Part shown: positions 29,321-38,465 of the stretch, piece by piece
Position numbering within the stretch: the first letter of the stretch is position 1
Layout of the letters: the number at the start of each line of letters is the position of its first letter
Program-made: the position numbers and the translations under genes
Virus record (IMG/VR): IMGVR_UViG_3300029770_000021
Origin: a virus
Length of the DNA: 40,540 nucleotides
Strand: one strand, 5' to 3'
Notes under the pieces: generated by a model
What the model was told of the DNA's origin: nothing
The model's database searches: none
What the model saw: the letters and a program-made list of their open reading frames with translations, nothing else

Positions 29321-30799
29321 ATGACGCTTGAACAGAGAGTCGCAGTTTTGGAGGAAATTTTCTCCAAGATCCAAGATTATTACACATCCGCCTACTCCGG
29401 CGAGGAGATCGACGCGCGGCTGGCGTCCGCCGGTGTGCCTATCGGCATCACCAAGGAGTACAAGAGCGTGGCCGAAATGAACCAGGACTTCACCGGTACG
29501 GACGTCCAGCGCGGCCAGTTCGTTTTGATCCTTCCAAACAGCACGGCCTCTGCGGACTACGGCAAGGTGTACCTCAAAGGCACGGCCAACTGGGTGTACG
29601 CCTTCACGCTGATCACGCTGACGTCCATCAAAGGCCCCATTGGACCTCCCGGCAAAAAGGGCGACAAGGGCGATCCCGGCGAGGCCGGTTCCAGCTTCGC
29701 CATTCTTGGCTATTTTGATACGCTGGACGCCCTCAAGGCAGCCGTCCCCAATCCCAAGGCCGGTGCCGTGTACGGCGTGGGCACTGCGCCTCCGTACAAC
29801 ATCTACATCTGGGATTCCGTCCACGGCAAGTGGGTACCCAACGGCAACCTGCAAGGCCCGCAGGGCAAGCAGGGTATTCAAGGCCCCGAGGGAAAGCAGG
29901 GGCCGGAGGGCAAGCAAGGCCCGGAAGGCCCCGTGGGCGGTTCCAGCAACTTCGTCCGCTACGATGCGCCCCAGAACCTCACAGACGAGCAGAAGGCGCA
30001 GGCGCGTGAAAACATTTCTGCGTTGAATGGACAGTTTTTATTGGCGAAATCTGTTGGTGGACAACTTGGATGGTACAGAATTACAGCGCCATTCTCTATC
30101 TACAACACAAGCGGGTATCTCACAGTATCCCATGCATGGGCGAACGGAGGTGCGTCCGAGTTGCTCTTAGGCGTATCTTCGGCCCCCGATACGCATGGAA
30201 AGCTCCAATGTTTGAGGAGCGTTGGCAAAATCAATAGTGTGCCATATATTTCCAATGCTCGCCTTGTAAAAGTCGACGGAAGCACGTTAGCTTTGGACCT
30301 CTACGTATCGGGAACGGGCAAAAATGATTGGAACTTGCAACTCTGCAATTGTGGAAACAATCCGATTACACTGACTACTCCGACATTTATTTCCACAGAT
30401 GATACGCTCCCGAGCGGGGAGACGCTTGCGGCCGCGATGGAATACCAAAACCCGCCTATGTTGCTTGGTGTGGAATACAAAACCACGGAGCGGTATCTCG
30501 GAAAGCCGGTGTACACAAAGACCTTTAATATTCCAGTATCCGCTTTTGAAAATCAGCTTCCATCGTATAGCCATGGAATCGATCATCTGGACCGCCTAGT
30601 AGATGCACGCGTGTATTGCAGAGCTGATTGGATCAGGATACTCCCGTGGTCGTACTTTGATTCAACTGCATGGTCGGCTCAGTATATGTTAAATTCGTCT
30701 GCTATAAAATTTGAGCTTGGCTCTAACGCCTTAGCTCGAATCAAAGAATACACAAATGGTGTTGATGTGACGCTTAAATACACCAAGACCACCGACTGA
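29321..30799 (+). CDS. Collagen-like tail fibre / receptor-binding protein
   Basis: G-X-Y runs GPIGPPGKKGDKGDPGEAG and GPQGKQGIQGPEGKQGPEGKQGPEGPVGG. Globular C-terminal domain. Confidence 0.8.
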   Translation: MTLEQRVAVLEEIFSKIQDYYTSAYSGEEIDARLASAGVPIGITKEYKSVAEMNQDFTGTDVQRGQFVLILPNSTASADYGKVYLKGTANWVYAFTLITLTSIKGPIGPPGKKGDKGDPGEAGSSFAILGYFDTLDALKAAVPNPKAGAVYGVGTAPPYNIYIWDSVHGKWVPNGNLQGPQGKQGIQGPEGKQGPEGKQGPEGPVGGSSNFVRYDAPQNLTDEQKAQARENISALNGQFLLAKSVGGQLGWYRITAPFSIYNTSGYLTVSHAWANGGASELLLGVSSAPDTHGKLQCLRSVGKINSVPYISNARLVKVDGSTLALDLYVSGTGKNDWNLQLCNCGNNPITLTTPTFISTDDTLPSGETLAAAMEYQNPPMLLGVEYKTTERYLGKPVYTKTFNIPVSAFENQLPSYSHGIDHLDRLVDARVYCRADWIRILPWSYFDSTAWSAQYMLNSSAIKFELGSNALARIKEYTNGVDVTLKYTKTTD

Positions 30800-30975: not shown

Positions 30976-31281
30976 ATGGAAATTCTACAGATCGTATTAA
31001 CTGCCGCTACCGGCTCCGGCGTGACCGCCATCATCCTCGCCATTTTACAGCGGAAATGGACTAAGGATGACAAAAGCGATGCCATCGTGGAGGCTTTGAA
31101 GGTTCTCATGGTGGATCGCGTCCGGCATTTGGGTCAGGCGTACATCGCGGCTGGCTCCATCAGCCTGTCGGACAAAGAAGCCTTGGGAGAGATGCACCGT
31201 GCGTACAAGGCGCTGGGGGGCAACGGGCATCTCAGCACGATCATGGCGGAGGTGGAGGACCTACCGCTGAGAAAGGAGTAA
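30976..31281 (+). CDS. N-terminally membrane-anchored protein of the lysis cassette
   Basis: AAGGGGGTG SD. MEILQIVLTAATGSGVTAIILAIL is a TM helix, followed by a soluble domain (LGGNGH). Confidence 0.6.
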   Translation: MEILQIVLTAATGSGVTAIILAILQRKWTKDDKSDAIVEALKVLMVDRVRHLGQAYIAAGSISLSDKEALGEMHRAYKALGGNGHLSTIMAEVEDLPLRKE

Positions 31282-31285
31282 AACT

Positions 31286-31477
31286 ATGGAAAACATCAAG
31301 AAACGGCTGGGGAATTTGCTGGCGGTGAAAAGCCTCGTGACCATCACCCTGACGGTAATCTTCGCGGTGCTGGCTCTGCGGGGTGACATTTCCGGGACGG
31401 AGTTTTTGACCATCTTTACCACGGTCATCGCGTTTTACTTCGGCACCCAGCGAGTGGCCGAGGACAAAAACAGTTAA
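31286..31477 (+). CDS. Holin (two TM helices)
   Basis: 63 aa with two hydrophobic helices and a charged C-terminus (QRVAEDKNS). AAAGGAG SD. Confidence 0.7.
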   Translation: MENIKKRLGNLLAVKSLVTITLTVIFAVLALRGDISGTEFLTIFTTVIAFYFGTQRVAEDKNS

Positions 31478-31520: not shown

Positions 31521-31847
31521 ATGAACAAGATCTACGAGAACATCATCAACGAGGGCAAGGCCACCGGCAAGCCCATCGAGGAAATCAACGCCGAACTGAA
31601 AGCGGCCGGGGCTACCTTCCACCTGAATCCCGACGGCGGCGTGGCCGGTTGGACGAAGGACGAAATGCGGGAGGGCTTCACTCCTGCGGAGAAGGAGCCG
31701 GAGGACGTGAAGCACCTCCATGACATTGTCCACTACGATACCGAGAAGGCCGGGGAGACCCTGCGCATCCAGTGTGCCGAGGGCGTGTATGACGTCACGT
31801 GGGACGTCTACGGCCACCCGGAGAAGGCAGTGAGAGTCCATGGTTGA
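31521..31847 (+). CDS. Hypothetical protein within the lysis cassette
   Basis: GAAAGGGGA SD. 108 aa, acidic. Confidence 0.6.
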   Translation: MNKIYENIINEGKATGKPIEEINAELKAAGATFHLNPDGGVAGWTKDEMREGFTPAEKEPEDVKHLHDIVHYDTEKAGETLRIQCAEGVYDVTWDVYGHPEKAVRVHG

Positions 31848-32574
31848 TACATTTAATTGCGCGAGAGCGCAGATCTACCACAACACCGGAAGGCTGACCC
31901 CGGCGCAGATCAAGGCCAAGACCGGCTGCACCCACATCATCAACGGCTATCTGTTCAACGGCAAGTTTCGGCCGGTGGGCTGGACGGTGATCGACGGCAA
32001 GGTCATTAGCCGGGACAAATACCAGGACTGGGGCGTGTCTATCGGCTCCGACGGACTGCCGAAGATGCTGACGGACCGGTGGGGATCCTTTCTTTCCGGC
32101 GTCCCGATCCTCAAGGGCGGATCCAAGCTGTACCGGGAGCTGACGCCGGACGTGGCCCGGTCTGCCGCCCGGACGGCGGTGGGCTGGCTGGCCAACGGCA
32201 AGGTGGTGCTGTGGTGCGACAAGGCCAGCCTGACCCGTGAGCAGCTTCAGAACAAGCTGCTGGGGCTGGGCGTGGTGGACGCCCTGATGCTGGACGGCGG
32301 CGGGTCTACACAGGGCATTTTCCCCGGCGGGACGGTGGACAGCACCCGGAAGGTGCCCACGCTGCTGCTGTTTTGGGAGTGGAAGGCGGCTACCCCGGCC
32401 CCTACCCCGGCTCCTACCCCGGCTCCTACCCCGGCCCCAGTCAATCCGGAGAAACCGGCGCTGGCATGGGGCAAAGCTCACGGCCTGCTGACGGACGCCA
32501 ACGCCGGGGAGACCGTGACCCGCGCCGACATGGTCCGGGCGCTGTATCAGATCTGGGGGGATAACCATGGTTGA
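31840..32574 (+). CDS. Phosphodiester glycosidase (DUF2233/NAGPA-like) putative lysin with TPAP linker
   Basis: RTAVGWLANGKVVLW...ALMLDGGGSTQ matches the DUF2233 pattern. It is followed by ATPAPTPAPTPAPTPAPV and a short C-terminal module. Confidence 0.65.
   Translation: MVDTFNCARAQIYHNTGRLTPAQIKAKTGCTHIINGYLFNGKFRPVGWTVIDGKVISRDKYQDWGVSIGSDGLPKMLTDRWGSFLSGVPILKGGSKLYRELTPDVARSAARTAVGWLANGKVVLWCDKASLTREQLQNKLLGLGVVDALMLDGGGSTQGIFPGGTVDSTRKVPTLLLFWEWKAATPAPTPAPTPAPTPAPVNPEKPALAWGKAHGLLTDANAGETVTRADMVRALYQIWGDNHG
32390..32437 (+). repeat. 4 x 12-bp tandem repeat encoding (TPAP)n linker
   Basis: CTACCCCGGC(C/T)C is repeated four times. Confidence 0.9.
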
Positions 32575-32968
32575 GATCCACGCTTACAGCAAAGCCGCCT
32601 CCGGGGGCAAGCAGCTCTCTGCCCATTTTAAGGTGCGGGAGTTCGCGTGTGGAGACGGGTCTGACGCTGTTTTGGTGGCTCCCCGGCTGGTGATGGTGCT
32701 GGAAACTATCCGCGCCCACTTCGGCGCTCCGGTGGTGATTCACAGTGCCTACCGGACGCCGCAGTACAATGCCAAAGTGAACGGCGCGGCTCACAGTCAG
32801 CACTGCTATGGCATGGCGGCGGATATTTCCGTCAGCGGCCAGAAGCCGGAGACGGTGGCGGCCTTCACCCGGTCGATCATGCCAGACTGGGGCGGTGTGG
32901 GCATCTACGCCAAGAAGGGCTTTACCCACATCGACGTGCGGGAGAAGAAATCCGACTGGACGGGCTAA
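32567..32968 (+). CDS. Peptidase M15A-type (D-Ala-D-Ala carboxypeptidase-like) endolysin
   Basis: HFKVREFAC..., IHSAYRTPQYNAKVNGAAHSQHCYGMAADI, and GFTHIDV carry the zinc ligand pattern H..D...H. Confidence 0.85.
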   Translation: MVEIHAYSKAASGGKQLSAHFKVREFACGDGSDAVLVAPRLVMVLETIRAHFGAPVVIHSAYRTPQYNAKVNGAAHSQHCYGMAADISVSGQKPETVAAFTRSIMPDWGGVGIYAKKGFTHIDVREKKSDWTG

Positions 32969-33037: not shown

Positions 33038-33280
33038 ATGGAAAAAACAAACCGAGAGATCCGGGCGCTGTTGTCATCCATGGCCCCGGCCCGGGCGGTG
33101 CAGGCCGTCCGGCTGGTAGGGCTTCCGCCTGATGAGGAAACAGCGGTGCTGGCAGTGGATGTCCACGGCCAGAGTTGCCTCCAAACGGCGGAGCGGCTGC
33201 ATGTGAGTGTGGACACCGTAAAGCGGTTACGGCGCTCTGCTTACCGAAAATTGCAAGACGAAATCTATACTACACGTTGA
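33038..33280 (+). CDS. Sigma-70 region-4-like small HTH protein
   Basis: 80 aa. EETAVLAVDVHGQSCLQTAERLHVSVDTVKRLRRSAYRKL. Confidence 0.6.
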   Translation: MEKTNREIRALLSSMAPARAVQAVRLVGLPPDEETAVLAVDVHGQSCLQTAERLHVSVDTVKRLRRSAYRKLQDEIYTTR

Positions 33281-33281
33281 G

Positions 33282-33313
33282 AGACGCGGTTCAATTTGAA
33301 CCGCGTCTTTTTT
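33282..33313 (+). terminator. Strong rho-independent terminator
   Basis: AGACGCGGTTCAA / TTGAACCGCGTCT stem followed by TTTTTT. Confidence 0.9.
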
Positions 33314-33342
33314 GCGCACTTTTCTGACCTTTTCTTGCCACT

Positions 33343-33371
33343 TTGAATGGAGGTTTTTGGCTTACTATGAA
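33343..33371 (+). promoter_or_regulatory. Candidate promoter of the accessory island
   Basis: TTGAAT (33343-33348), 17 nt, TATGAA (33366-33371). Confidence 0.35.
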
Positions 33372-33395
33372 AGCAGAGCAAGGGAGGGGTTCTCC

Positions 33396-33566
33396 GTGAT
33401 TACAAATGGTAGAGAATACATTGACCGTCTGCGGGCGTGCGGAATGAGCGAATCCAGCGCCACAGATATTTGTTATAAATACGCAGCACAGGATGATGAA
33501 GAAGGGCTGGCTGAATTGGTGAGAGCAAACGAATTGCTCTACGATGACCGCCGGGAATATGTATAA
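33396..33566 (+). CDS. Small hypothetical protein (56 aa)
   Basis: AAGGGAGGGG SD before GTG 33396. Confidence 0.5.
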   Translation: MITNGREYIDRLRACGMSESSATDICYKYAAQDDEEGLAELVRANELLYDDRREYV

Positions 33567-33939
33567 GTATTTCAACCCCAATCCCTGCGGAAAAAATGTT
33601 GGAGACTGCACCGTGCGGGCGATCTCTAAGGCAACCGGGATGGAGTGGGGCGAGGTGTATTTGCGGCTGTGCATCCAAGGGTATCTGGACGGCGATATGC
33701 CGTCGGCAAACGCTTGTTGGGGGCGGTATCTGCGGAGCATTGGATACCGGCGGTATATCGTACCGGACACCTGCCCAGACTGCTACACGGTTGGGCAATT
33801 TGCGGAGGATCACCCAAAAGGCACCTATATTCTGGCTCTATCCGGTCATGTGGTCTGCGTCTGCGACGGAATGATCTGGGACAGCTGGGACAGCAGCAAC
33901 GAGAACATCTTGTATTACTGGGTCAAGGAGGATGACTAA
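33559..33939 (+). CDS. Hypothetical protein with a papain-like Cys...His...Asp pattern
   Basis: MYKYFNPNPCGKNVGDCTVRAISKA...LSGHVVCVCDGMIWDSWDS. The Cys/His/Asp spacing suggests a cysteine peptidase/amidase-like fold. Confidence 0.55.
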   Translation: MYKYFNPNPCGKNVGDCTVRAISKATGMEWGEVYLRLCIQGYLDGDMPSANACWGRYLRSIGYRRYIVPDTCPDCYTVGQFAEDHPKGTYILALSGHVVCVCDGMIWDSWDSSNENILYYWVKEDD

Positions 33940-33940
33940 A

Positions 33941-34381
33941 ATGGCTTACACACCTTACGGATGGCAAAATCCCTATTACGCACCGCCTATGCCGGATAAC
34001 CTCATGCAGATGCGCCAACAGCAGATGCAGCCTATGACACCCCAGATGCCGCAGGCCCCGCAAAACCCGGTGGCGCAGAGCGGCGTCCAGTGGGTCAGTG
34101 GGGAACAGGAGGCCCGAAACTGGATGATCGCGCCCAACGCCGCTGTGGCGTTGTGGGATAGCTCCGCGCCTACGGTGTACCTCAAAAAGGCAGATGCCAG
34201 CGGTAAACCGTCCCTCACGATTTATGACCTCGTAGAACGCACAGAAACGCCCCGTACAGCCACGCAGGAAAAGGGCGTGGAGTTTGTCACCAGAAAAGAA
34301 TTCGACGCACTAGCGGCGCTTGTGGGCGAATTGAAGGGCAAGAAGAAGCGCAAGGTAGAGGAGGAAGAGGACGATGAGTAA
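33941..34381 (+). CDS. P/Q/M/Y-rich N-terminus, Lys/Glu-rich C-terminus protein
   Basis: AAGGAGG lies 9 nt before ATG 33941. MAYTPYGWQNPYYAPPMPDNLMQMRQQQMQPMTPQMPQAPQNP...KKKRKVEEEEDDE. Confidence 0.65.
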   Translation: MAYTPYGWQNPYYAPPMPDNLMQMRQQQMQPMTPQMPQAPQNPVAQSGVQWVSGEQEARNWMIAPNAAVALWDSSAPTVYLKKADASGKPSLTIYDLVERTETPRTATQEKGVEFVTRKEFDALAALVGELKGKKKRKVEEEEDDE

Positions 34382-34595
34382 CAATCCGTTTTTCAATGCG
34401 TTAGGTGGCGGACAGATGCCGGGGTCGATGAGCGGCTTTCCTCAGCTTTTACAGCAGTTCAAGCAGTTCAAGGCAAGTTTTAAAGGCGACCCAAAAGCGG
34501 AAGTGGAGAAGATGCTGCAAAGCGGCAAAATCTCACAAGATCAGTTAAACAAGATACAGTCAATGGCAAACCAATTTCAGGGGCTTTTCAAGTAA
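34374..34595 (+). CDS. Small Q/K-rich hypothetical protein
   Basis: 73 aa, coupled to the upstream gene. Confidence 0.6.
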   Translation: MSNNPFFNALGGGQMPGSMSGFPQLLQQFKQFKASFKGDPKAEVEKMLQSGKISQDQLNKIQSMANQFQGLFK

Positions 34596-34648
34596 TCAAA
34601 ATCGTGGCCACGGTTTGATATAAATATTTTTTCAAAAGGAGTGATACT

Positions 34649-35365
34649 ATGTCTCTTTCCTCTGACGGCACCATGCTGACTATGCCTGTGGCTCCTGCCA
34701 ACACCGGAAACGGTAACGGCTTCGGCTGGGGCGGCGATGGCGCATGGTGGATCGTGCTGTTCCTCATTTTCGCTGCGTTCGGTGGCTGGGGTAACGGCTT
34801 TGGTTTCGGTGGCGGCGGCAACGGCGTGATGGACGGTTATGTCCTGACCTCTGATTTTGCCAATGTCGAGCGCAAGATCGACAGTGTAAATCAGGGCCTT
34901 TGCGACGGATTTTACCAGCAGGCGCAGCTTATCAACGGCACCAACATGGCGATGGCAAACGGCTTTGGGCAGGCTGAGCTTTCCCGCAGTAACCAGCAGG
35001 CGGCTCTCATGCAGCAGTTGACTGCCATGCAGATGCAGGCCGCTGAATGCTGCTGCAACACCCAGCGCAGCATCGAGGGCGTGCGCTATGATATGGCGGC
35101 GCAGGCTTGCGACACCCGGAACACGGTGCAGAACGCCACCCGGGACATCATCGACAATGCCAACAGCAACAGCCGCGCCATTTTGGACTTCCTAACCCAG
35201 AGCAAGCTGCAGGATCTCCAGAGCGAGAATCAGGGCTTGAAGCTGGCCGCATCTCAGGCGGCACAGAACAGCTATCTTGTGTCTCAGCTCCGGCCGTCTC
35301 CCATTCCGGCTTACACGGTGCAGAACCCCTATTGCTGCAACCAGTTCGCCGGTTGCGGTTGCTGA
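34649..35365 (+). CDS. Gly/aromatic-rich membrane-anchored, Q-rich coiled-coil, Cys-rich protein
   Basis: AAAGGAG SD. GNGNGFGWGGDGAWWIVLFLIFAAFGGWGNGFGFGGGGNG, AAECCCNTQ, and a C-terminal NPYCCNQFAGCGC. Confidence 0.7.
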   Translation: MSLSSDGTMLTMPVAPANTGNGNGFGWGGDGAWWIVLFLIFAAFGGWGNGFGFGGGGNGVMDGYVLTSDFANVERKIDSVNQGLCDGFYQQAQLINGTNMAMANGFGQAELSRSNQQAALMQQLTAMQMQAAECCCNTQRSIEGVRYDMAAQACDTRNTVQNATRDIIDNANSNSRAILDFLTQSKLQDLQSENQGLKLAASQAAQNSYLVSQLRPSPIPAYTVQNPYCCNQFAGCGC

Positions 35366-35448
35366 CAACTGCATAGCATAGCTTTTTGTTGGCAATGTTT
35401 TGTTGACGCCAACAAAATGTTCGGCCCCGTGCCGATACTGATGACAAA

Positions 35449-35480
35449 GCGGCGGGGCAGTAGCCCTGCCGCTGATTTTA
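35449..35480 (+). terminator. 10-bp GC hairpin plus T-tract just before the next SD (terminator or attenuator)
   Basis: GCGGCGGGGC-AGTA-GCCCTGCCGC followed by TGATTTTA. A second hairpin TTTGTTGGC/GCCAACAAA lies at about 35383-35414. Confidence 0.5.
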
Positions 35481-35495
35481 TGAAAGGAGATTTTT

Positions 35496-35921
35496 ATGCC
35501 TGAATACACTGCCATTGCCGCACAGACCGTAGCGGCAAACCAGAACGTGCTTTTTACGGAAGCACCGATCCCCTGCACTAAGGGCCTTGTGACGCACCGC
35601 GCAGGCTCCGGCCTGTTTAACCTCCGTGGTAACTGCTCCCAGTGCCGCGTCCGCTATAAGGTGGACTTTATCGGCAATATTGCCGTAAGCACCGGCGGGA
35701 CCCCCGGTCCCATCTCCGTTGCCATTGCGGTTGACGGTGAGCCGCTCCCGTCCTCCGTTGCGACGGTGACGCCCACGGTTGCGGGGGCGTTTTTCAACGT
35801 GGCTGCATCCGAGTACGTTGACGTTACAAAGGGTTGCTGCGCGTCGCTGTCCATCCGCAACGTTAGTGGCGAGGCCATTGACGTGAGCAACGCGAACCTT
35901 ATCATTACCAGAGTTTGCTGA
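35496..35921 (+). CDS. Beta-rich Cys-containing protein (possibly BclA-C/C1q/TNF-like jelly roll)
   Basis: 141 aa. QTVAANQNVLFTEAP...GLFNLRG...YKVDFIGNIAV...ISVAIAVDGEPLP...SIRNVSGEAIDVSNANLIITRVC. Confidence 0.65.
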   Translation: MPEYTAIAAQTVAANQNVLFTEAPIPCTKGLVTHRAGSGLFNLRGNCSQCRVRYKVDFIGNIAVSTGGTPGPISVAIAVDGEPLPSSVATVTPTVAGAFFNVAASEYVDVTKGCCASLSIRNVSGEAIDVSNANLIITRVC

Positions 35922-35935
35922 GAAAGGAGAACACA

Positions 35936-36301
35936 ATGGGAATGAAATCTATGTATGAACTGCGGGATATGCTCTGCAAGGAGCTGGAAGAAATCACCCG
36001 CAAGGGCGAGCTGGGCGCCGGGGATCTGGACATTGCCCACAAGCTGACGGACACCATCAAAAACATCGACAAGATCGAGGCAATGGACGAGCGCGGCTAT
36101 TCCGGGCGGTATCTGGACGATGATCTGCGCGGTTACAGCCGTGGCAGCTCCTATGCCCGGAGACATTATGTCCGTGGCCATTACAGCCGCACGGACGCTA
36201 CCGAGCATCTGCGTAGCCAGATCAACGATATGATGCGTGAGACCGACGATGACCGCATCAAGGACGCCCTGCGCCGTGCAATGGACATGATGGAGGATTA
36301 A
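35936..36301 (+). CDS. Hypothetical helical protein with a Tyr/Arg/Ser-rich middle
   Basis: AAGGAG SD. MGMKSMYELRDMLCKELEEITRKGELGAGDLDIAHKLTDTIKNIDKIEAM...GYSRGSSYARRHYVRGHYSR. Confidence 0.65.
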   Translation: MGMKSMYELRDMLCKELEEITRKGELGAGDLDIAHKLTDTIKNIDKIEAMDERGYSGRYLDDDLRGYSRGSSYARRHYVRGHYSRTDATEHLRSQINDMMRETDDDRIKDALRRAMDMMED

Positions 36302-36315
36302 GGGGGTAGGCCCCA

Positions 36316-36618
36316 ATGATTGACGATCGAGAAGTGGCGCTATGGATTAAGCGGTTAGAAACAGAGGAGTCCAGCTGGGCAAACTATGAAAAGCTGGCGG
36401 CGCTGTATACCATCCAAAACCAGAACCGAGAGCCGGTGAGGGAAAGCCGTATGATCGATGCGTATTCTGCGGCTCCCGCGCCTGACAGCGATTTCCTTCG
36501 GGCGGTGTCTAACGTTGACCCAGCCCGTGCGTGGGAGGTCATGGACGAGCTGATGGACAGCTTGCAGGTGATAAACGAGCGGGTTTACAATAGCGTCATG
36601 CGGAAATTGGAAAGCTAA
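36316..36618 (+). CDS. Hypothetical protein
   Basis: AGGGGGTAGG SD. 100 aa. Confidence 0.6.
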   Translation: MIDDREVALWIKRLETEESSWANYEKLAALYTIQNQNREPVRESRMIDAYSAAPAPDSDFLRAVSNVDPARAWEVMDELMDSLQVINERVYNSVMRKLES

Positions 36619-36620
36619 AC

Positions 36621-36660
36621 TTAACCCCTCGGCAAATGTCGGGGGGTTAGTTATATTTTA
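36621..36660. terminator. Hairpin terminator between the convergent accessory island and integrase
   Basis: TTAACCCC...GGGGTTAG stem followed by TTATATTTTA. Confidence 0.65.
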
Positions 36661-36688
36661 ACGTTAGCGTTGCGACATGAAAATAAGA

Positions 36689-38029
36689 CTAACTTGGCGT
36701 TACAAAAAACGCACCGTCATTGTCTGCGTCGATGCGCTGGATTGTGCGTACCCAAAATTCCTTTTTTGCCTGCCGGTCTAAATCAGGATATTCCTTCAAT
36801 TCCCGCCGTAATGTTTCAAGGTCAAATTCTTTTATAGGCTCCGGGTTTATTGTCGCGAGTTGCTGTTTTAATTCCGTATAGTCTTTTTTGTATTCTTCGA
36901 TTTCAATCAAATCCGACAGATACAGGTCTTTCAGTTTTTGCATTTTCCGCTTGATTTGCTCCGCCGTTTTGGGCGGCTTTTTTTCTGCGGTTTTTGATTT
37001 GGAGTAATACTTTTTTGCGATCCCCTCAAATTCTCTCAGAAGGTAATCCTCAAGCACATCTTCTCGGATTCTGAGGATGTGCGGGCAGTCGGCTGGGTCA
37101 AGTGTGTGCGTTCTGCATCGGTAGTACTTGTACACCTGCTTTACAGTCTCCGGCTGCATATTTCTACCGCACTCCCGGCAACGGAGAATTCCGGTAAACA
37201 AATATATTCGATCCGCACTGGCGTTCCGCTGGCTTCGCCGTTCCAAGATTTTCCCAGCAAGGTCGAAAGTTTCTCGATCGACAAGCGCGGGCAATGCGTT
37301 TTCCACGCCGAACGCCTCACCTAAGTACAGGCGGCTTCTCAACGCATCCTTGTATTTGTTGTACGAGCGTTTGATCCCCCACTCCGTTGCCATATACCGC
37401 CTTAGCGCAAGGATGCTTTGCAGCCGTATAAAGGCTGGGAACATATCTCGCGCCGCATCTGCGGTTTTTTCATCAATGTCGTAGCGCCGGTTCTTCACGC
37501 AGATTCCGATAGGAGTTTTCCCGTTGGTGGGCTGGCCCTTTGCCCTCTTGCCCTCGTTGATGGCCTTAATGCGCTCCGATGTGCGGTCAGCTTCGTCCTG
37601 CGCTACCGACAACATAATATTGACCTTCAATCGCCCTGATGCAGTCCGCGTTTCGTAGTCCTCTCTAATGGCCTGCCAATCCACATGATTTTTGTCGAGA
37701 ACCTCTTGCACGGCGTAGTACCCCGCCACATTCCGAAACCACCTATCCAGCTTGACAAAAAGGATGGTGTCGATTTTCCCGGCGCGGCAATCATCAAGCA
37801 GGCGCATCAAGGCCGGACGCTTTTTATACGGCTTTCTGGCGCTGATTCCGGCGTCCTCGTAAATACCCACCACCTCCATGCCGTGTGCGGCGGCATATGC
37901 AATCAGGGCATCACGCTGGTCTGCCAGGGACAGGCCGTGCTTCGCCTGTTCTTCGGTCGATACCCTGATGTACAGTGCTACACGGATGCGTAGATTATTT
38001 GGTAGAGTGACCACTATTTTTTGGCACAT
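36689..38029 (-). CDS. Large serine recombinase (integrase)
   Basis: ALYIRVSTEEQAKHGLSLADQ (catalytic Ser region), a recombinase domain, and the zinc ribbon LRCRECGRNM...YYRCRTH. GGAGGGG lies 6 nt before ATG 38029. Confidence 0.92.
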   Translation of the reverse strand: MCQKIVVTLPNNLRIRVALYIRVSTEEQAKHGLSLADQRDALIAYAAAHGMEVVGIYEDAGISARKPYKKRPALMRLLDDCRAGKIDTILFVKLDRWFRNVAGYYAVQEVLDKNHVDWQAIREDYETRTASGRLKVNIMLSVAQDEADRTSERIKAINEGKRAKGQPTNGKTPIGICVKNRRYDIDEKTADAARDMFPAFIRLQSILALRRYMATEWGIKRSYNKYKDALRSRLYLGEAFGVENALPALVDRETFDLAGKILERRSQRNASADRIYLFTGILRCRECGRNMQPETVKQVYKYYRCRTHTLDPADCPHILRIREDVLEDYLLREFEGIAKKYYSKSKTAEKKPPKTAEQIKRKMQKLKDLYLSDLIEIEEYKKDYTELKQQLATINPEPIKEFDLETLRRELKEYPDLDRQAKKEFWVRTIQRIDADNDGAFFVTPS

Positions 38030-38030
38030 G

Positions 38031-38465
38031 TTATCCCCTCCAAAATCCATAGTTGGCACAATGGATGTCAACCCAAACGCACCAGGCAAAAAGCCCGATG
38101 ATCAATAGTGACAAACCGAGTATGATCCACCTGTATAGCTTCACGGAGTGCCAAAGATTGCACAGTTCTGTGTCCATCAGGCCGATGGTCTGCCGTTTGT
38201 TCTCAAGGCGGTGTTCTAGTCCGTCCTTTTCCGCTTGCAACGTTTCCTCACTGGCCGTCAGATGATCTCCGATGCCGTAAAATGCATCCAGCGACACGCC
38301 AAGGACGGCGCATATTGGCCCAACCGTGGAGATATAGGGGGCCTTGGAAGCATGGGTAAAGAAATTGTTGACGGTAGACGGCGGAATCCCCGATGCTTCA
38401 GCTATGTCCTGAATGGTCATACCCAAAGCGTTACGTTTCGCCTTACAAACTTCCTGAATTGTCAT
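38031..38465 (-). CDS. Membrane-anchored XRE-family HTH regulator
   Basis: AAGGAGG SD. MTIQEVCKAKRNALGMTIQDIAEASGIPPSTVNNFF is the HTH, followed by a coiled coil and a C-terminal TM helix (WIILGLSLLIIGLFAWCVWV). Its stop lies 1 nt from the int ATG. Confidence 0.8.
   Translation of the reverse strand: MTIQEVCKAKRNALGMTIQDIAEASGIPPSTVNNFFTHASKAPYISTVGPICAVLGVSLDAFYGIGDHLTASEETLQAEKDGLEHRLENKRQTIGLMDTELCNLWHSVKLYRWIILGLSLLIIGLFAWCVWVDIHCANYGFWRG

Follow-up and report, generated by a model that had tools for sequence, protein, structure and literature searches.

The described systems that come closest to the genes discussed here are scattered over rather different biological contexts. The exosporium of the Bacillus cereus group contains jelly-roll proteins with (BclA) or without (ExsFA and BxpB) a collagen stalk, and spore coat proteins are rich in Cys, Tyr and Gln and lack signal peptides. 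Known phage lysis cassettes include single-pass membrane proteins, among them the i-spanin Rz, the T4 holin T and XhlA/BhlA, in which an N-terminal transmembrane helix is followed by a long helical, Cys-bearing domain and which are encoded beside holin and endolysin genes. Phage morons and lysogenic-conversion cassettes, in turn, are insulated by terminators and occupy an attR-proximal position between the lysis genes and the integrase gene. Some features of each of these systems recur in a block of eight genes, p1-p8, located between positions 33,282 and 36,660 of the viral genome IMGVR_UViG_3300029770_000021 from IMG/VR, the entire 40,540-nucleotide (nt) stretch of which is referred to hereinafter as the window. 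We conclude that this block is a widespread phage module of uncharacterised function that is carried by both temperate and apparently lytic gut phages and is not particular to the prophage represented by the window or to spores.

The eight open reading frames (ORFs) described in the original prediction, which was made from the sequence of the window alone, are confirmed: they span 33396-36618 on the plus strand, each is led by a purine-rich Shine-Dalgarno (SD) sequence, and together they lie between two strong terminators (hairpins with z-scores of -6.0 and -4.6, see below). Alignments of the respective families shift the starts of three of them, namely p1 (GTG at 33396), p2 (ATG at 33559) and p3 (ATG at 33941); the genes overlap at the p1/p2 and p3/p4 junctions and are separated by 14 nt each between p6 and p7 and between p7 and p8. 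For seven of the eight ORFs, homologues with 30-60% identity are found in syntenic order in dozens of loci, which puts the coding assignment far beyond chance. When 185,579 species genomes were scanned with a degenerate pattern, 80 diverse loci were recovered in which p5 shows 34-97% identity, and profile hidden Markov models (HMMs) constructed from these detected p3 in 65 of these, p6 in 54, p2 in 53, p7 in 50, p4 in 49, p8 in 24 and p1 in 9, all of these counts being lower bounds given that many contigs are cut. The gene neighbourhood, the conservation of which the original prediction had proposed to examine, turned out to be collinear (p2-p3-p4-p5-p6-p7(-p8)) in 59 of the 64 loci with at least three members; in the remaining five, p2 is relocated downstream. 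An identical cassette is found in phages that differ in their tail fibres and lysis genes. The labelled hosts are mostly Oscillospiraceae, Lachnospiraceae and other Clostridia and Bacilli, a labelling that is unreliable for ~40-kb contigs of metagenome-assembled genomes, the firm isolates being Anaerotruncus colihominis DSM 17241 and Enterocloster hominis.

These observations bear directly on the possibility that p1-p8 are unrelated small proteins, involved in anti-defence or host takeover, that merely travel together. The small size of the genes, their lack of annotation, their location at a module boundary and the occurrence of p2 alone in several other phages (Tsamsa-like phages, GBK2 and Lak megaphages, see below) are compatible with such a cluster. 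However, strict collinearity and co-retention at 30-60% identity are unlike the behaviour of shuffling, fast-evolving genes, and taken together with translational coupling, strongly conserved structural motifs and the lack of any match in PADLOC, they make this explanation very unlikely. In tailed phages of gut Firmicutes, p1-p8 is an accessory operon that is autonomous and horizontally mobile, moves as a unit and has a gene order retained in phages that show mosaicism elsewhere; it is a conserved module rather than an accretion of morons, and it is not tied to lysogeny.

The latter point becomes apparent when the surroundings of the module are compared across phages. In integrated prophages, no other gene block lies between it and attR: in one 198-kb contig, the prophage closes with the module and host genes follow, and in the A. 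colihominis prophage, it is preceded by a GH25 endolysin gene and a small helix-turn-helix (HTH) gene and followed by the host ruvCA genes. In Dulem virus 33, the order is lysis genes, module, integrase. The placement next to attR is among the points that favour the view of the original prediction, according to which p1-p8 would be a lysogen-expressed conversion cargo, either a disulfide-linked, spore- or exosporium-like surface assembly or a prophage exclusion system. The resemblances to spore proteins on which this view could draw are real, with an ExsF/BclA-like fold in p6 (the nearest structures to which are those of the exosporium proteins BclA, ExsFA and BxpB), a Cys-, Tyr- and Gln-rich composition and lack of signal peptides as in coat proteins, and many hosts among spore-forming Clostridia; moreover, a sigma factor-like gene lies upstream. 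Nevertheless, as general readings, neither the prophage-expressed cargo nor the spore-associated assembly is supported. The Butyrivibrio phage Ceridwen (L173) carries the complete module, in the order endolysin, terminator, p1-p6, an insert encoding a 264-amino acid (aa) protein, p7-p8 and early genes. The authors of the Ceridwen study found no integrase or excisionase and saw lytic growth only (PMC7372960). In another phage (L176), a holin gene, a CHAP endolysin gene and a sigma-r4-like gene are followed by p1-p8 and then by replication genes on the same strand, with no integrase called nearby, and in ~143-kb phage-like contigs that encode NrdD, dUTPase and DNA polymerase III alpha, a p3-like gene, p5 and p6 follow the tail genes. 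The spore reading is contradicted by Ceridwen, the host of which, Butyrivibrio fibrisolvens, is not known to sporulate, and by the p5 homologues in crAss-like phages and in viruses of Bacteroides and of methanogenic archaea that are described below. Given, furthermore, that no promoter of its own is supported for the module, that PADLOC gives no match and that p6 has neither a collagen-like region nor a sequence-level match to BclA or ExsF, we consider the conversion cargo quite unlikely. The characterization of the block as self-contained has fared better: it is bounded by terminators, and in one locus (L178), the recombination genes on one side of it and the tail genes on the other are all on the minus strand and p2-p8 on the plus strand, so that it is transcribed against all its neighbours. 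Inserts within the module are lineage-specific; that of Ceridwen lies between p6 and p7 (L173:8518-9312), and others were seen between p5 and p6 (~1 kb, in L088 and L098) and between p4 and p5 (L164).

The mode of expression can be addressed to some extent from the intergenic regions. The intrinsic terminator at 33282-33313 (plus strand; -25.4 kcal/mol, z -6.0), in which the hairpin was equalled in none of 200 shuffles and is directly followed by a T-run, closes the lysis operon and insulates p1-p8; the one at 36621-36650 (plus strand; -22.1 kcal/mol, z -4.6; also listed by the terminator scan) closes p1-p8 on the side of the serine recombinase gene, the stop codon of which it faces. In each of the loci inspected (the window, L001, L119, L167, L173, L174 and L176), the module comes after a strong hairpin with a T-run. 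In L173, L176 and L001, the gap between this terminator and the first start codon is just 20-35 nt, which leaves no space for a promoter and so points to extension of the upstream late/lysis transcript by read-through or antitermination. The promoter that had been proposed for the window, TTGAAT-17-TATGAA, is not supported, as it matches the consensus at 8 of 12 positions and is not listed by the promoter scan, in which promoter-like sites were no more common than in shuffled sequences. Three internal hairpins had been taken to suggest graded expression; one of these, between p5 and p6 (35448-35473, plus strand; -25.0 kcal/mol, z -5.0; listed as terminator-like), is real and is a candidate for a partial terminator or an mRNA stabiliser, whereas the hairpin located 5' of it (35383-35414) is marginal (z -2.2) and the third one (34598-34622) does not exceed chance when compared with shuffles (z -1.3). 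Similar hairpins between p5 and p6 were noticed in L091, L104, L106, L113, L128 and L161 with a quick terminator detector, the counts of which are qualitative only given that the leading terminator of the window escaped it. Neither Rfam nor repeat scans of the p1-p8 region gave anything above threshold.

The last gene before the leading terminator (33038-33280, plus strand) encodes an 80-aa, sigma-70 region-4-like HTH protein (Pfam Sigma70_r4_2, E-value 7e-8, 32.4 bits with a cut-off of 25.7) and is a candidate regulator. In an iterative search, 22 of ~80 loci had a sigma-r4-like gene in the 2.5 kb that precede the module, a lower bound inasmuch as the upstream genes of this type in L119 and L176 escaped the search. 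The suggestion that this protein regulates p1-p8 is thus plausible as far as its recurrence goes, although the gene is not always present. A region-4-only protein of ~70-80 aa recurs just 5' of the leading terminator of the module even in distant phages (L119, L176 and Clostridium perfringens phage CPD1). Of the module itself, CPD1 has p3-, p5- and p8-like genes.

The core protein of the module is p5 (34649-35365, plus strand; 238 aa; phrog_16490, E 5e-45), the only one among p1-p8 for which a hydrophobic helix is predicted, whereas a signal peptide is predicted in none. In agreement with its initial description as membrane-anchored, p5 contains a single predicted transmembrane helix (residues 35-53) between Gly/Trp/Phe-rich flanks, followed by helical repeats, an invariant CCC motif with one more conserved Cys ~18 residues on, a Pro-rich PxPxPAYxVxNPY motif and a conserved Cys-rich end (CC...GCGC), with NPYCCNQFAGCGC at the C-terminus. 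The CCC motif and the Cys tail are present in all family members examined from bacterial-genome loci; a correlation between the presence of p6 and the Cys tail of p5 was considered and dismissed, the tail being universal. Relatives of p5 form 1,734 clusters at 50% identity (E<=0.001), and full-length homologues are encoded by many crAss-like phages (such as cr116_1, L170:5401-6294; HMM E 6e-38 for crAss-like), by the cultured Bacteroides phage C3_41T2LP (L172:5989-6903; E 1e-39) and by Methanomassiliicoccales viruses (vir215, L171:5878-6756; E 2e-16), in all of which the other seven proteins of the module went undetected. In the homologues from bacterial viruses, the hydrophobic helix with Gly/aromatic flanks is retained along with the CCC motif and a tail rich in Pro and Cys; the archaeal virus homologue has the helix and two CCC motifs without the Pro/Cys tail. 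Depositors have labelled these proteins 'spike protein/glycoprotein' or 'outer capsid protein/viral fiber'. None of the matches of the p5 profile, which were to coiled-coil proteins, apolipophorin III and influenza HA2 (E 0.18-10), reached the threshold, and the 'spike/glycoprotein' labels on the crAss-like homologues probably stem from sub-threshold matches of the HA2/coiled-coil type. The 136-aa gene that follows p5 in crAss-like phages was tried as a p6 homologue and rejected (hhalign probability 0.5%), as was the idea that the N-terminal extension of the crAss-like and Bacteroides p5 represents p4 fused to it, an arrangement from which the topology would have followed. In vir215, a reverse transcriptase gene (L171:4152-5186) lies beside a tail protein gene, ~700 bp upstream of the p5 homologue, and may be part of a diversity-generating retroelement.

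The architecture of p5 is also a reason to consider a role of the module as a lysis accessory, in which p5 would be a single-pass protein akin to XhlA, an i-spanin or the T4 holin T that modulates or completes the disruption of the envelope, with the soluble partners regulating it. Its N-terminal transmembrane segment, helical region and conserved Cys residues do fit this picture, comparable single-pass proteins being known from lysis cassettes, and holin and endolysin genes adjoin the module or lie close to it in the window, Dulem virus 33, Ceridwen, the A. colihominis prophage, L176 and crAss-like cr116_1. Examined as the inner component of a two-component spanin, p5 has a suitable architecture; however, no ORF with a lipobox, the mark of an o-spanin partner, is present in any plus frame of 33281-36700, and the hosts, mainly Clostridia and Bacilli, are mostly monoderm and need no spanin. 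Neither does p5 qualify as the holin itself, given that canonical holin candidates (30976-31281 and 31286-31474) already lie upstream in the window, and a Phage_holin_4_1 protein is encoded in L006. With a terminator between the lysis genes and the module, which lies away from such genes in L178, C3_41T2LP and the 143-kb contigs, an involvement in lysis of this kind appears unlikely.

The second protein that lends itself to structural interpretation is p6 (35496-35921, plus strand; 141 aa; phrog_20016, E 3e-49), which ends in ITRVC and had been read as a jelly roll of the BclA-C/C1q type. At the level of the fold, this reading is right. The AlphaFold2 (AF2) model obtained from a 74-sequence alignment is an all-beta sandwich of the TNF/C1q type (predicted local distance difference test score (pLDDT) 94.8, predicted template modelling score (pTM) 0.87), and the top matches of a Foldseek search against the PDB are the C-terminal domain of F-BclA, the ExsF/F-Anchor complex, BxpB, ExsFA and BclA (E 5e-8 to 2e-6, template modelling (TM) scores 0.67-0.75). 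The F-BclA domain itself is matched with E 5e-8 and TM 0.72-0.75; the PDB entries matched by the p6 model include 9h38, 9h3d, 8d02, 7r1m and 1wck. TNF-family ligands, Pgp3, C1q domains and a cyanophage fibre domain rank lower. In BFVD, the neighbours of p6 are stand-alone proteins of 130-145 aa from uncultured gut phages (TM up to 0.89), two of which are labelled 'BclA protein'. At the sequence level, no membership in the BclA/ExsF group was detected in Pfam or NCBIfam at E<=1, nor did phmmer or the family profile give anything significant against the PDB. A collagen-like GXX stalk or an exosporium-targeting N-terminus is lacking, with modelled strands spanning residues 3-139, so that a stalk would find no space, and no match to Collagen. 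Within the p6 family, a Cys pair (residues 114-115) is invariant, and it is specific to this family. That p6 might be a spare tip of the window's own collagen-like tail fibre was considered and rejected for lack of any similarity. The tail fibre gene, at 29321-30799, encodes collagen-like repeats.

Should the products of p1-p8 be regarded as virion-associated accessories, p6 would sit on a fibre or capsid as an added TNF-like knob or decoration, and p5 a fibre or ejection protein, the Gly-rich segment of which inserts in the target membrane. TNF/C1q jelly rolls are common as tips of phage fibres, and among the Foldseek matches of p6 are the CBD of the short tail fibre of cyanophage A-1(L) and tail-fibre/collagen-like viral proteins. 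Genomic context lends some additional weight to this possibility, with p3, p5 and p6 directly following tail genes in the 143-kb contigs and p5 located between terS and capsid genes in crAss-like cr116_1, where the depositors speak of spike or fibre; the sub-threshold matches of the p5 profile to HA2 and spike heptad repeats and the lack of a signal peptide in every product, as would befit virion proteins, point the same way. The same context, however, also speaks against it: terminators insulate the operon from the structural genes, the operon of L178 is transcribed against the tail genes, and p5 of C3_41T2LP follows recombination genes. Moreover, the respective PHROG families are without structural annotation, p6 is unlike the window's own collagen-like fibre, and all HA2 matches have E>1. 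On balance, a place of these proteins in the virion seems rather unlikely.

The third protein of interest, p2 (33559-33939, alternative start at 33544, plus strand; 126 aa; phrog_3754, E 1e-35), is a predicted thiol enzyme. Cys17, His97 and Asp108 are invariant in two independent alignments (47 and 60 sequences), and a CPxC motif at positions 72-75 has invariant Cys72 and Pro73 and a nearly invariant Cys75. In the AF2 model (pLDDT 93.6), Cys17 is located at the N-terminus of a helix (residues 17-26), and His97 and Asp108 lie on consecutive strands (97-102 and 105-108), which is the arrangement characteristic of papain-like enzymes. The part of the earlier description that referred to a papain-like Cys/His/Asp protein thus stands with respect to an invariant triad in the expected positions and falls short with respect to the fold: Foldseek returned no significant neighbour, and a search of p2 against Pfam and PDB profiles gave no match. 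The best-aligning of the weak neighbours are nonetheless papain-like (Josephin-2, TM 0.45; PeiR, TM 0.49; Tae4; CHAP), and some relatives of p2 in Bacillus phages are annotated as 'putative peptidase'. The p2 family also occurs alone in ~165-kb siphoviruses of Bacillus anthracis/cereus (Tsamsa-like), in Geobacillus phage GBK2 and in ~540-kb Lak megaphages of Prevotella, the records of which gave no co-match to p5 or p6 in the searches run.

The remaining proteins are small and devoid of recognizable domains. The first gene, p1 (33396-33566, plus strand; SD sequence AAGGGAGGGG upstream), encodes a 56-aa helical protein from a GTG start; HMM matches are found in L001, L087, L098, L099, L105, L106, L117, L127, L173 and L176, with no family match in Pfam, NCBIfam or PHROGs. 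In p3 (33941-34381, plus strand, the listed start being 33932; ~146 aa; phrog_21718, E 7e-31), the family alignment delineates a Tyr/Pro/Gln-rich N-terminus, a conserved core of ~50 aa, a helix and a charged tail with KKKRKVEEEEDDE; the family profile matches nothing in Pfam or the PDB. The start of p4 (34374-34595, plus strand; phrog_22984, E 8e-23), a 73-aa Gln/Lys-rich protein, overlaps the stop codon of p3. The 121-aa p7 (35936-36301, plus strand; phrog_28802, E 5e-9), found in 50 of the 80 genome loci, is helical in its N-terminal half and rich in Arg, Tyr and Ser in the middle, and p8 (36316-36618, plus strand) is an acidic helical protein of 100 aa that is matched by HMM in 24 of the 80 genome loci and additionally in L002, L173, L176 and L178, with no match in Pfam, NCBIfam or PHROGs. 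The initial descriptions of the products, including the tail of p3, the Gly/Trp/Phe flanks of p5, the end of p6 and the Tyr/Arg/Ser-rich p7, are accurate. Six of the eight (p2, p3, p4, p5, p6 and p7) match PHROGs, all labelled as being of unknown function; there is no meaningful match of p1-p8 in Pfam, NCBIfam or PADLOC at E<=1 and none to PDB sequences, and the family profiles of p2, p3, p5 and p6 gave nothing significant against the libraries, the PDB included. Accordingly, the statement that none of these proteins resembles a standard virion, lysis or defence protein is borne out by Pfam, PHROG, NCBIfam and PADLOC, and of the profile and structure searches that had been called for, those with p6 revealed a fold, whereas no family emerged for any product and no significant fold for p2. 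In the literature on phrog_16490, crAss 'spike' proteins, virion proteomes of C. perfringens phages and links between prophages and the exosporium, we found nothing relevant to the p1-p8 proteins.

How could these proteins work together? The possibility that we tentatively prefer is that p1-p8 encode a membrane-anchored, cysteine-stabilised complex that is made in productive infection and acts on the host envelope. Under this scenario, p5 would oligomerise via its helical region and anchor the complex at the cytoplasmic membrane, and a trimer of p6 would cap p5 or dock on it, similarly to the binding of ExsF to a terminal peptide of its partner. Stabilisation of the assembly would come from the conserved Cys pairs, through disulfides or a bound metal; the disulfide-cross-linked assembly envisaged originally is, given the conserved CC and CCC motifs, a reasonable suggestion. 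The predicted thiol enzyme p2 would mature or cross-link the Gln/Lys/Tyr-rich partners p3, p4 and p7, which would be substrates or scaffolds. Expression would fall in productive infection, by read-through or antitermination of the post-lysis terminator, possibly with the aid of the sigma-r4-like protein, and the complex would act on the envelope, for example, in superinfection exclusion or in conditioning of the membrane around lysis. So construed, the module would be neither a lysogenic-conversion nor a spore-specific factor.

Several observations weigh against this scenario. In p5, the CCC motif and the Cys tail are kept with or without p6, which accordingly is no obligatory partner; across 51 family members, both flanks of the p5 helix carry weakly acidic charges, so that no clear topology emerges; and the papain-like fold of p2 is unconfirmed, the best Foldseek matches having E 0.46-2 and TM<=0.49. 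With regard to expression, the ~80 nt between the terminator and p1 in the window could accommodate a non-canonical promoter, the operon of L178 is preceded by 280 nt of its own that contain a promoter-like site matching at 10 of 12 positions, and the attR-end position in integrated prophages is the classic moron position. Most generally, no experiment or homology assigns a function to any of the products, and we infer, rather than observe, the contact between p5 and p6, the oligomeric states, the topology of p5 and the chemistry of the Cys residues.

A bolder version of the membrane-complex scenario, which we deem rather improbable, is that p5 and its partners constitute a new phage membrane machine, with a single-pass, fusion-protein- or spanin-like anchor that bears the invariant CCC motif, a TNF-like trimeric cap in the phages of Firmicutes and maturation by a dedicated thiol enzyme. 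If this were true, the machine would be common to viruses of Firmicutes, Bacteroidota and methanogenic archaea by virtue of acting on the cytoplasmic membrane that these hosts share, in genome entry, exclusion or egress.

The rest of the window is that of a ~40.5-kb genome of a temperate phage of the siphovirus type, as judged from PHROG and Pfam searches, which identified a major head protein, a tape measure protein and a tail fibre with collagen repeats. Upstream of p1-p8, the two holin-like small membrane ORFs mentioned above lie 5' of the endolysin genes, which encode a NAGPA-type glycosidase (31840-32574) and a Peptidase_M15_3 endolysin (32567-32968). The former contains a (PAPT)n linker ahead of its C-terminal domain and is fused to the M15 peptidase in the relatives L005 and L006. 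Downstream, on the minus strand, are the serine recombinase (integrase) gene (36689-38089; Pfam Resolvase and Zn_ribbon_recom) and an XRE-type repressor gene. The local alignment between the window and the integrated prophage L003 stops at 36671 in the window and 12024 in L003, beyond which L003 runs into host genes; this divergence at ~36671 places the attP core in the interval between the p1-p8 terminator and the integrase stop codon (attP region, 36651-36688, not assigned to a strand). In three close relatives (L003:7348-8595, L004:7342-8589 and L005:7343-8590), a three-gene, minus-strand insert that is absent from the window separates the sigma-r4-like gene from p1; it encodes proteins of 206 aa, 112 aa (HTH_3) and 90 aa and may represent a separate moron, defence or regulatory unit.

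The significance of the module lies, above all, in its spread. Phages of the type found in the window are represented on hundreds of human-gut contigs, and the core protein p5 is common to viruses of three very different host groups of the anaerobic gut, crAss-like phages included. The co-retention of seven genes, along with their strongly conserved motifs, implies a defined function that is beyond the reach of the current annotation libraries. This function is directly testable given that all or part of the module is carried by Ceridwen on B. fibrisolvens DSM 3071, several C. perfringens phages and the lysogenic A. colihominis DSM 17241.

As a gene set, p1-p8 is without a described counterpart, with no characterised relative for seven of the eight proteins; its novelty is one of absence of precedent rather than of a demonstrated mechanism. 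The individual parallels are instructive all the same. Like the C-terminal domain of BclA, F-BclA, ExsFA and BxpB, p6 has the jelly-roll fold and a size of ~140 aa, and it shares with ExsFA and BxpB the stand-alone form without a collagen stalk; in contrast to them, it is phage-encoded and has the family-specific CC pair, and the structure-based identity is just 12-17%. The placement of the triad and the weak structural neighbours liken p2 to papain-like clan CA and transglutaminase-like enzymes (Josephin, PeiR, CHAP, Tae4), from which it differs in its very small size (126 aa), the extra conserved CPxC, a best E-value of 0.46 with TM 0.45-0.49, and the lack of a profile match. For all the architectural likeness of p5 to the i-spanin Rz, T4 holin T and XhlA/BhlA, there is no sequence or profile similarity, and its Gly/aromatic flanks, CCC motif and Cys tail are without counterpart in those proteins. 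The Gly-rich hydrophobic segment, long helices and Cys cluster of p5 also recall the class I fusion subunits, such as influenza HA2 and the heptad repeats of coronavirus S2; the profile matches being sub-threshold (E 1.4-10), this is a lead, not evidence. Finally, the terminator-insulated, attR-proximal placement between lysis genes and integrase is that of phage morons and lysogenic-conversion cassettes; p1-p8 differs from these in that several relatives of the module show no support for a promoter of their own, in that it is also present in phages with no integrase called (Ceridwen and, in the surroundings of the module, L176), and in being, instead of a single gene, a conserved operon of six to eight genes.

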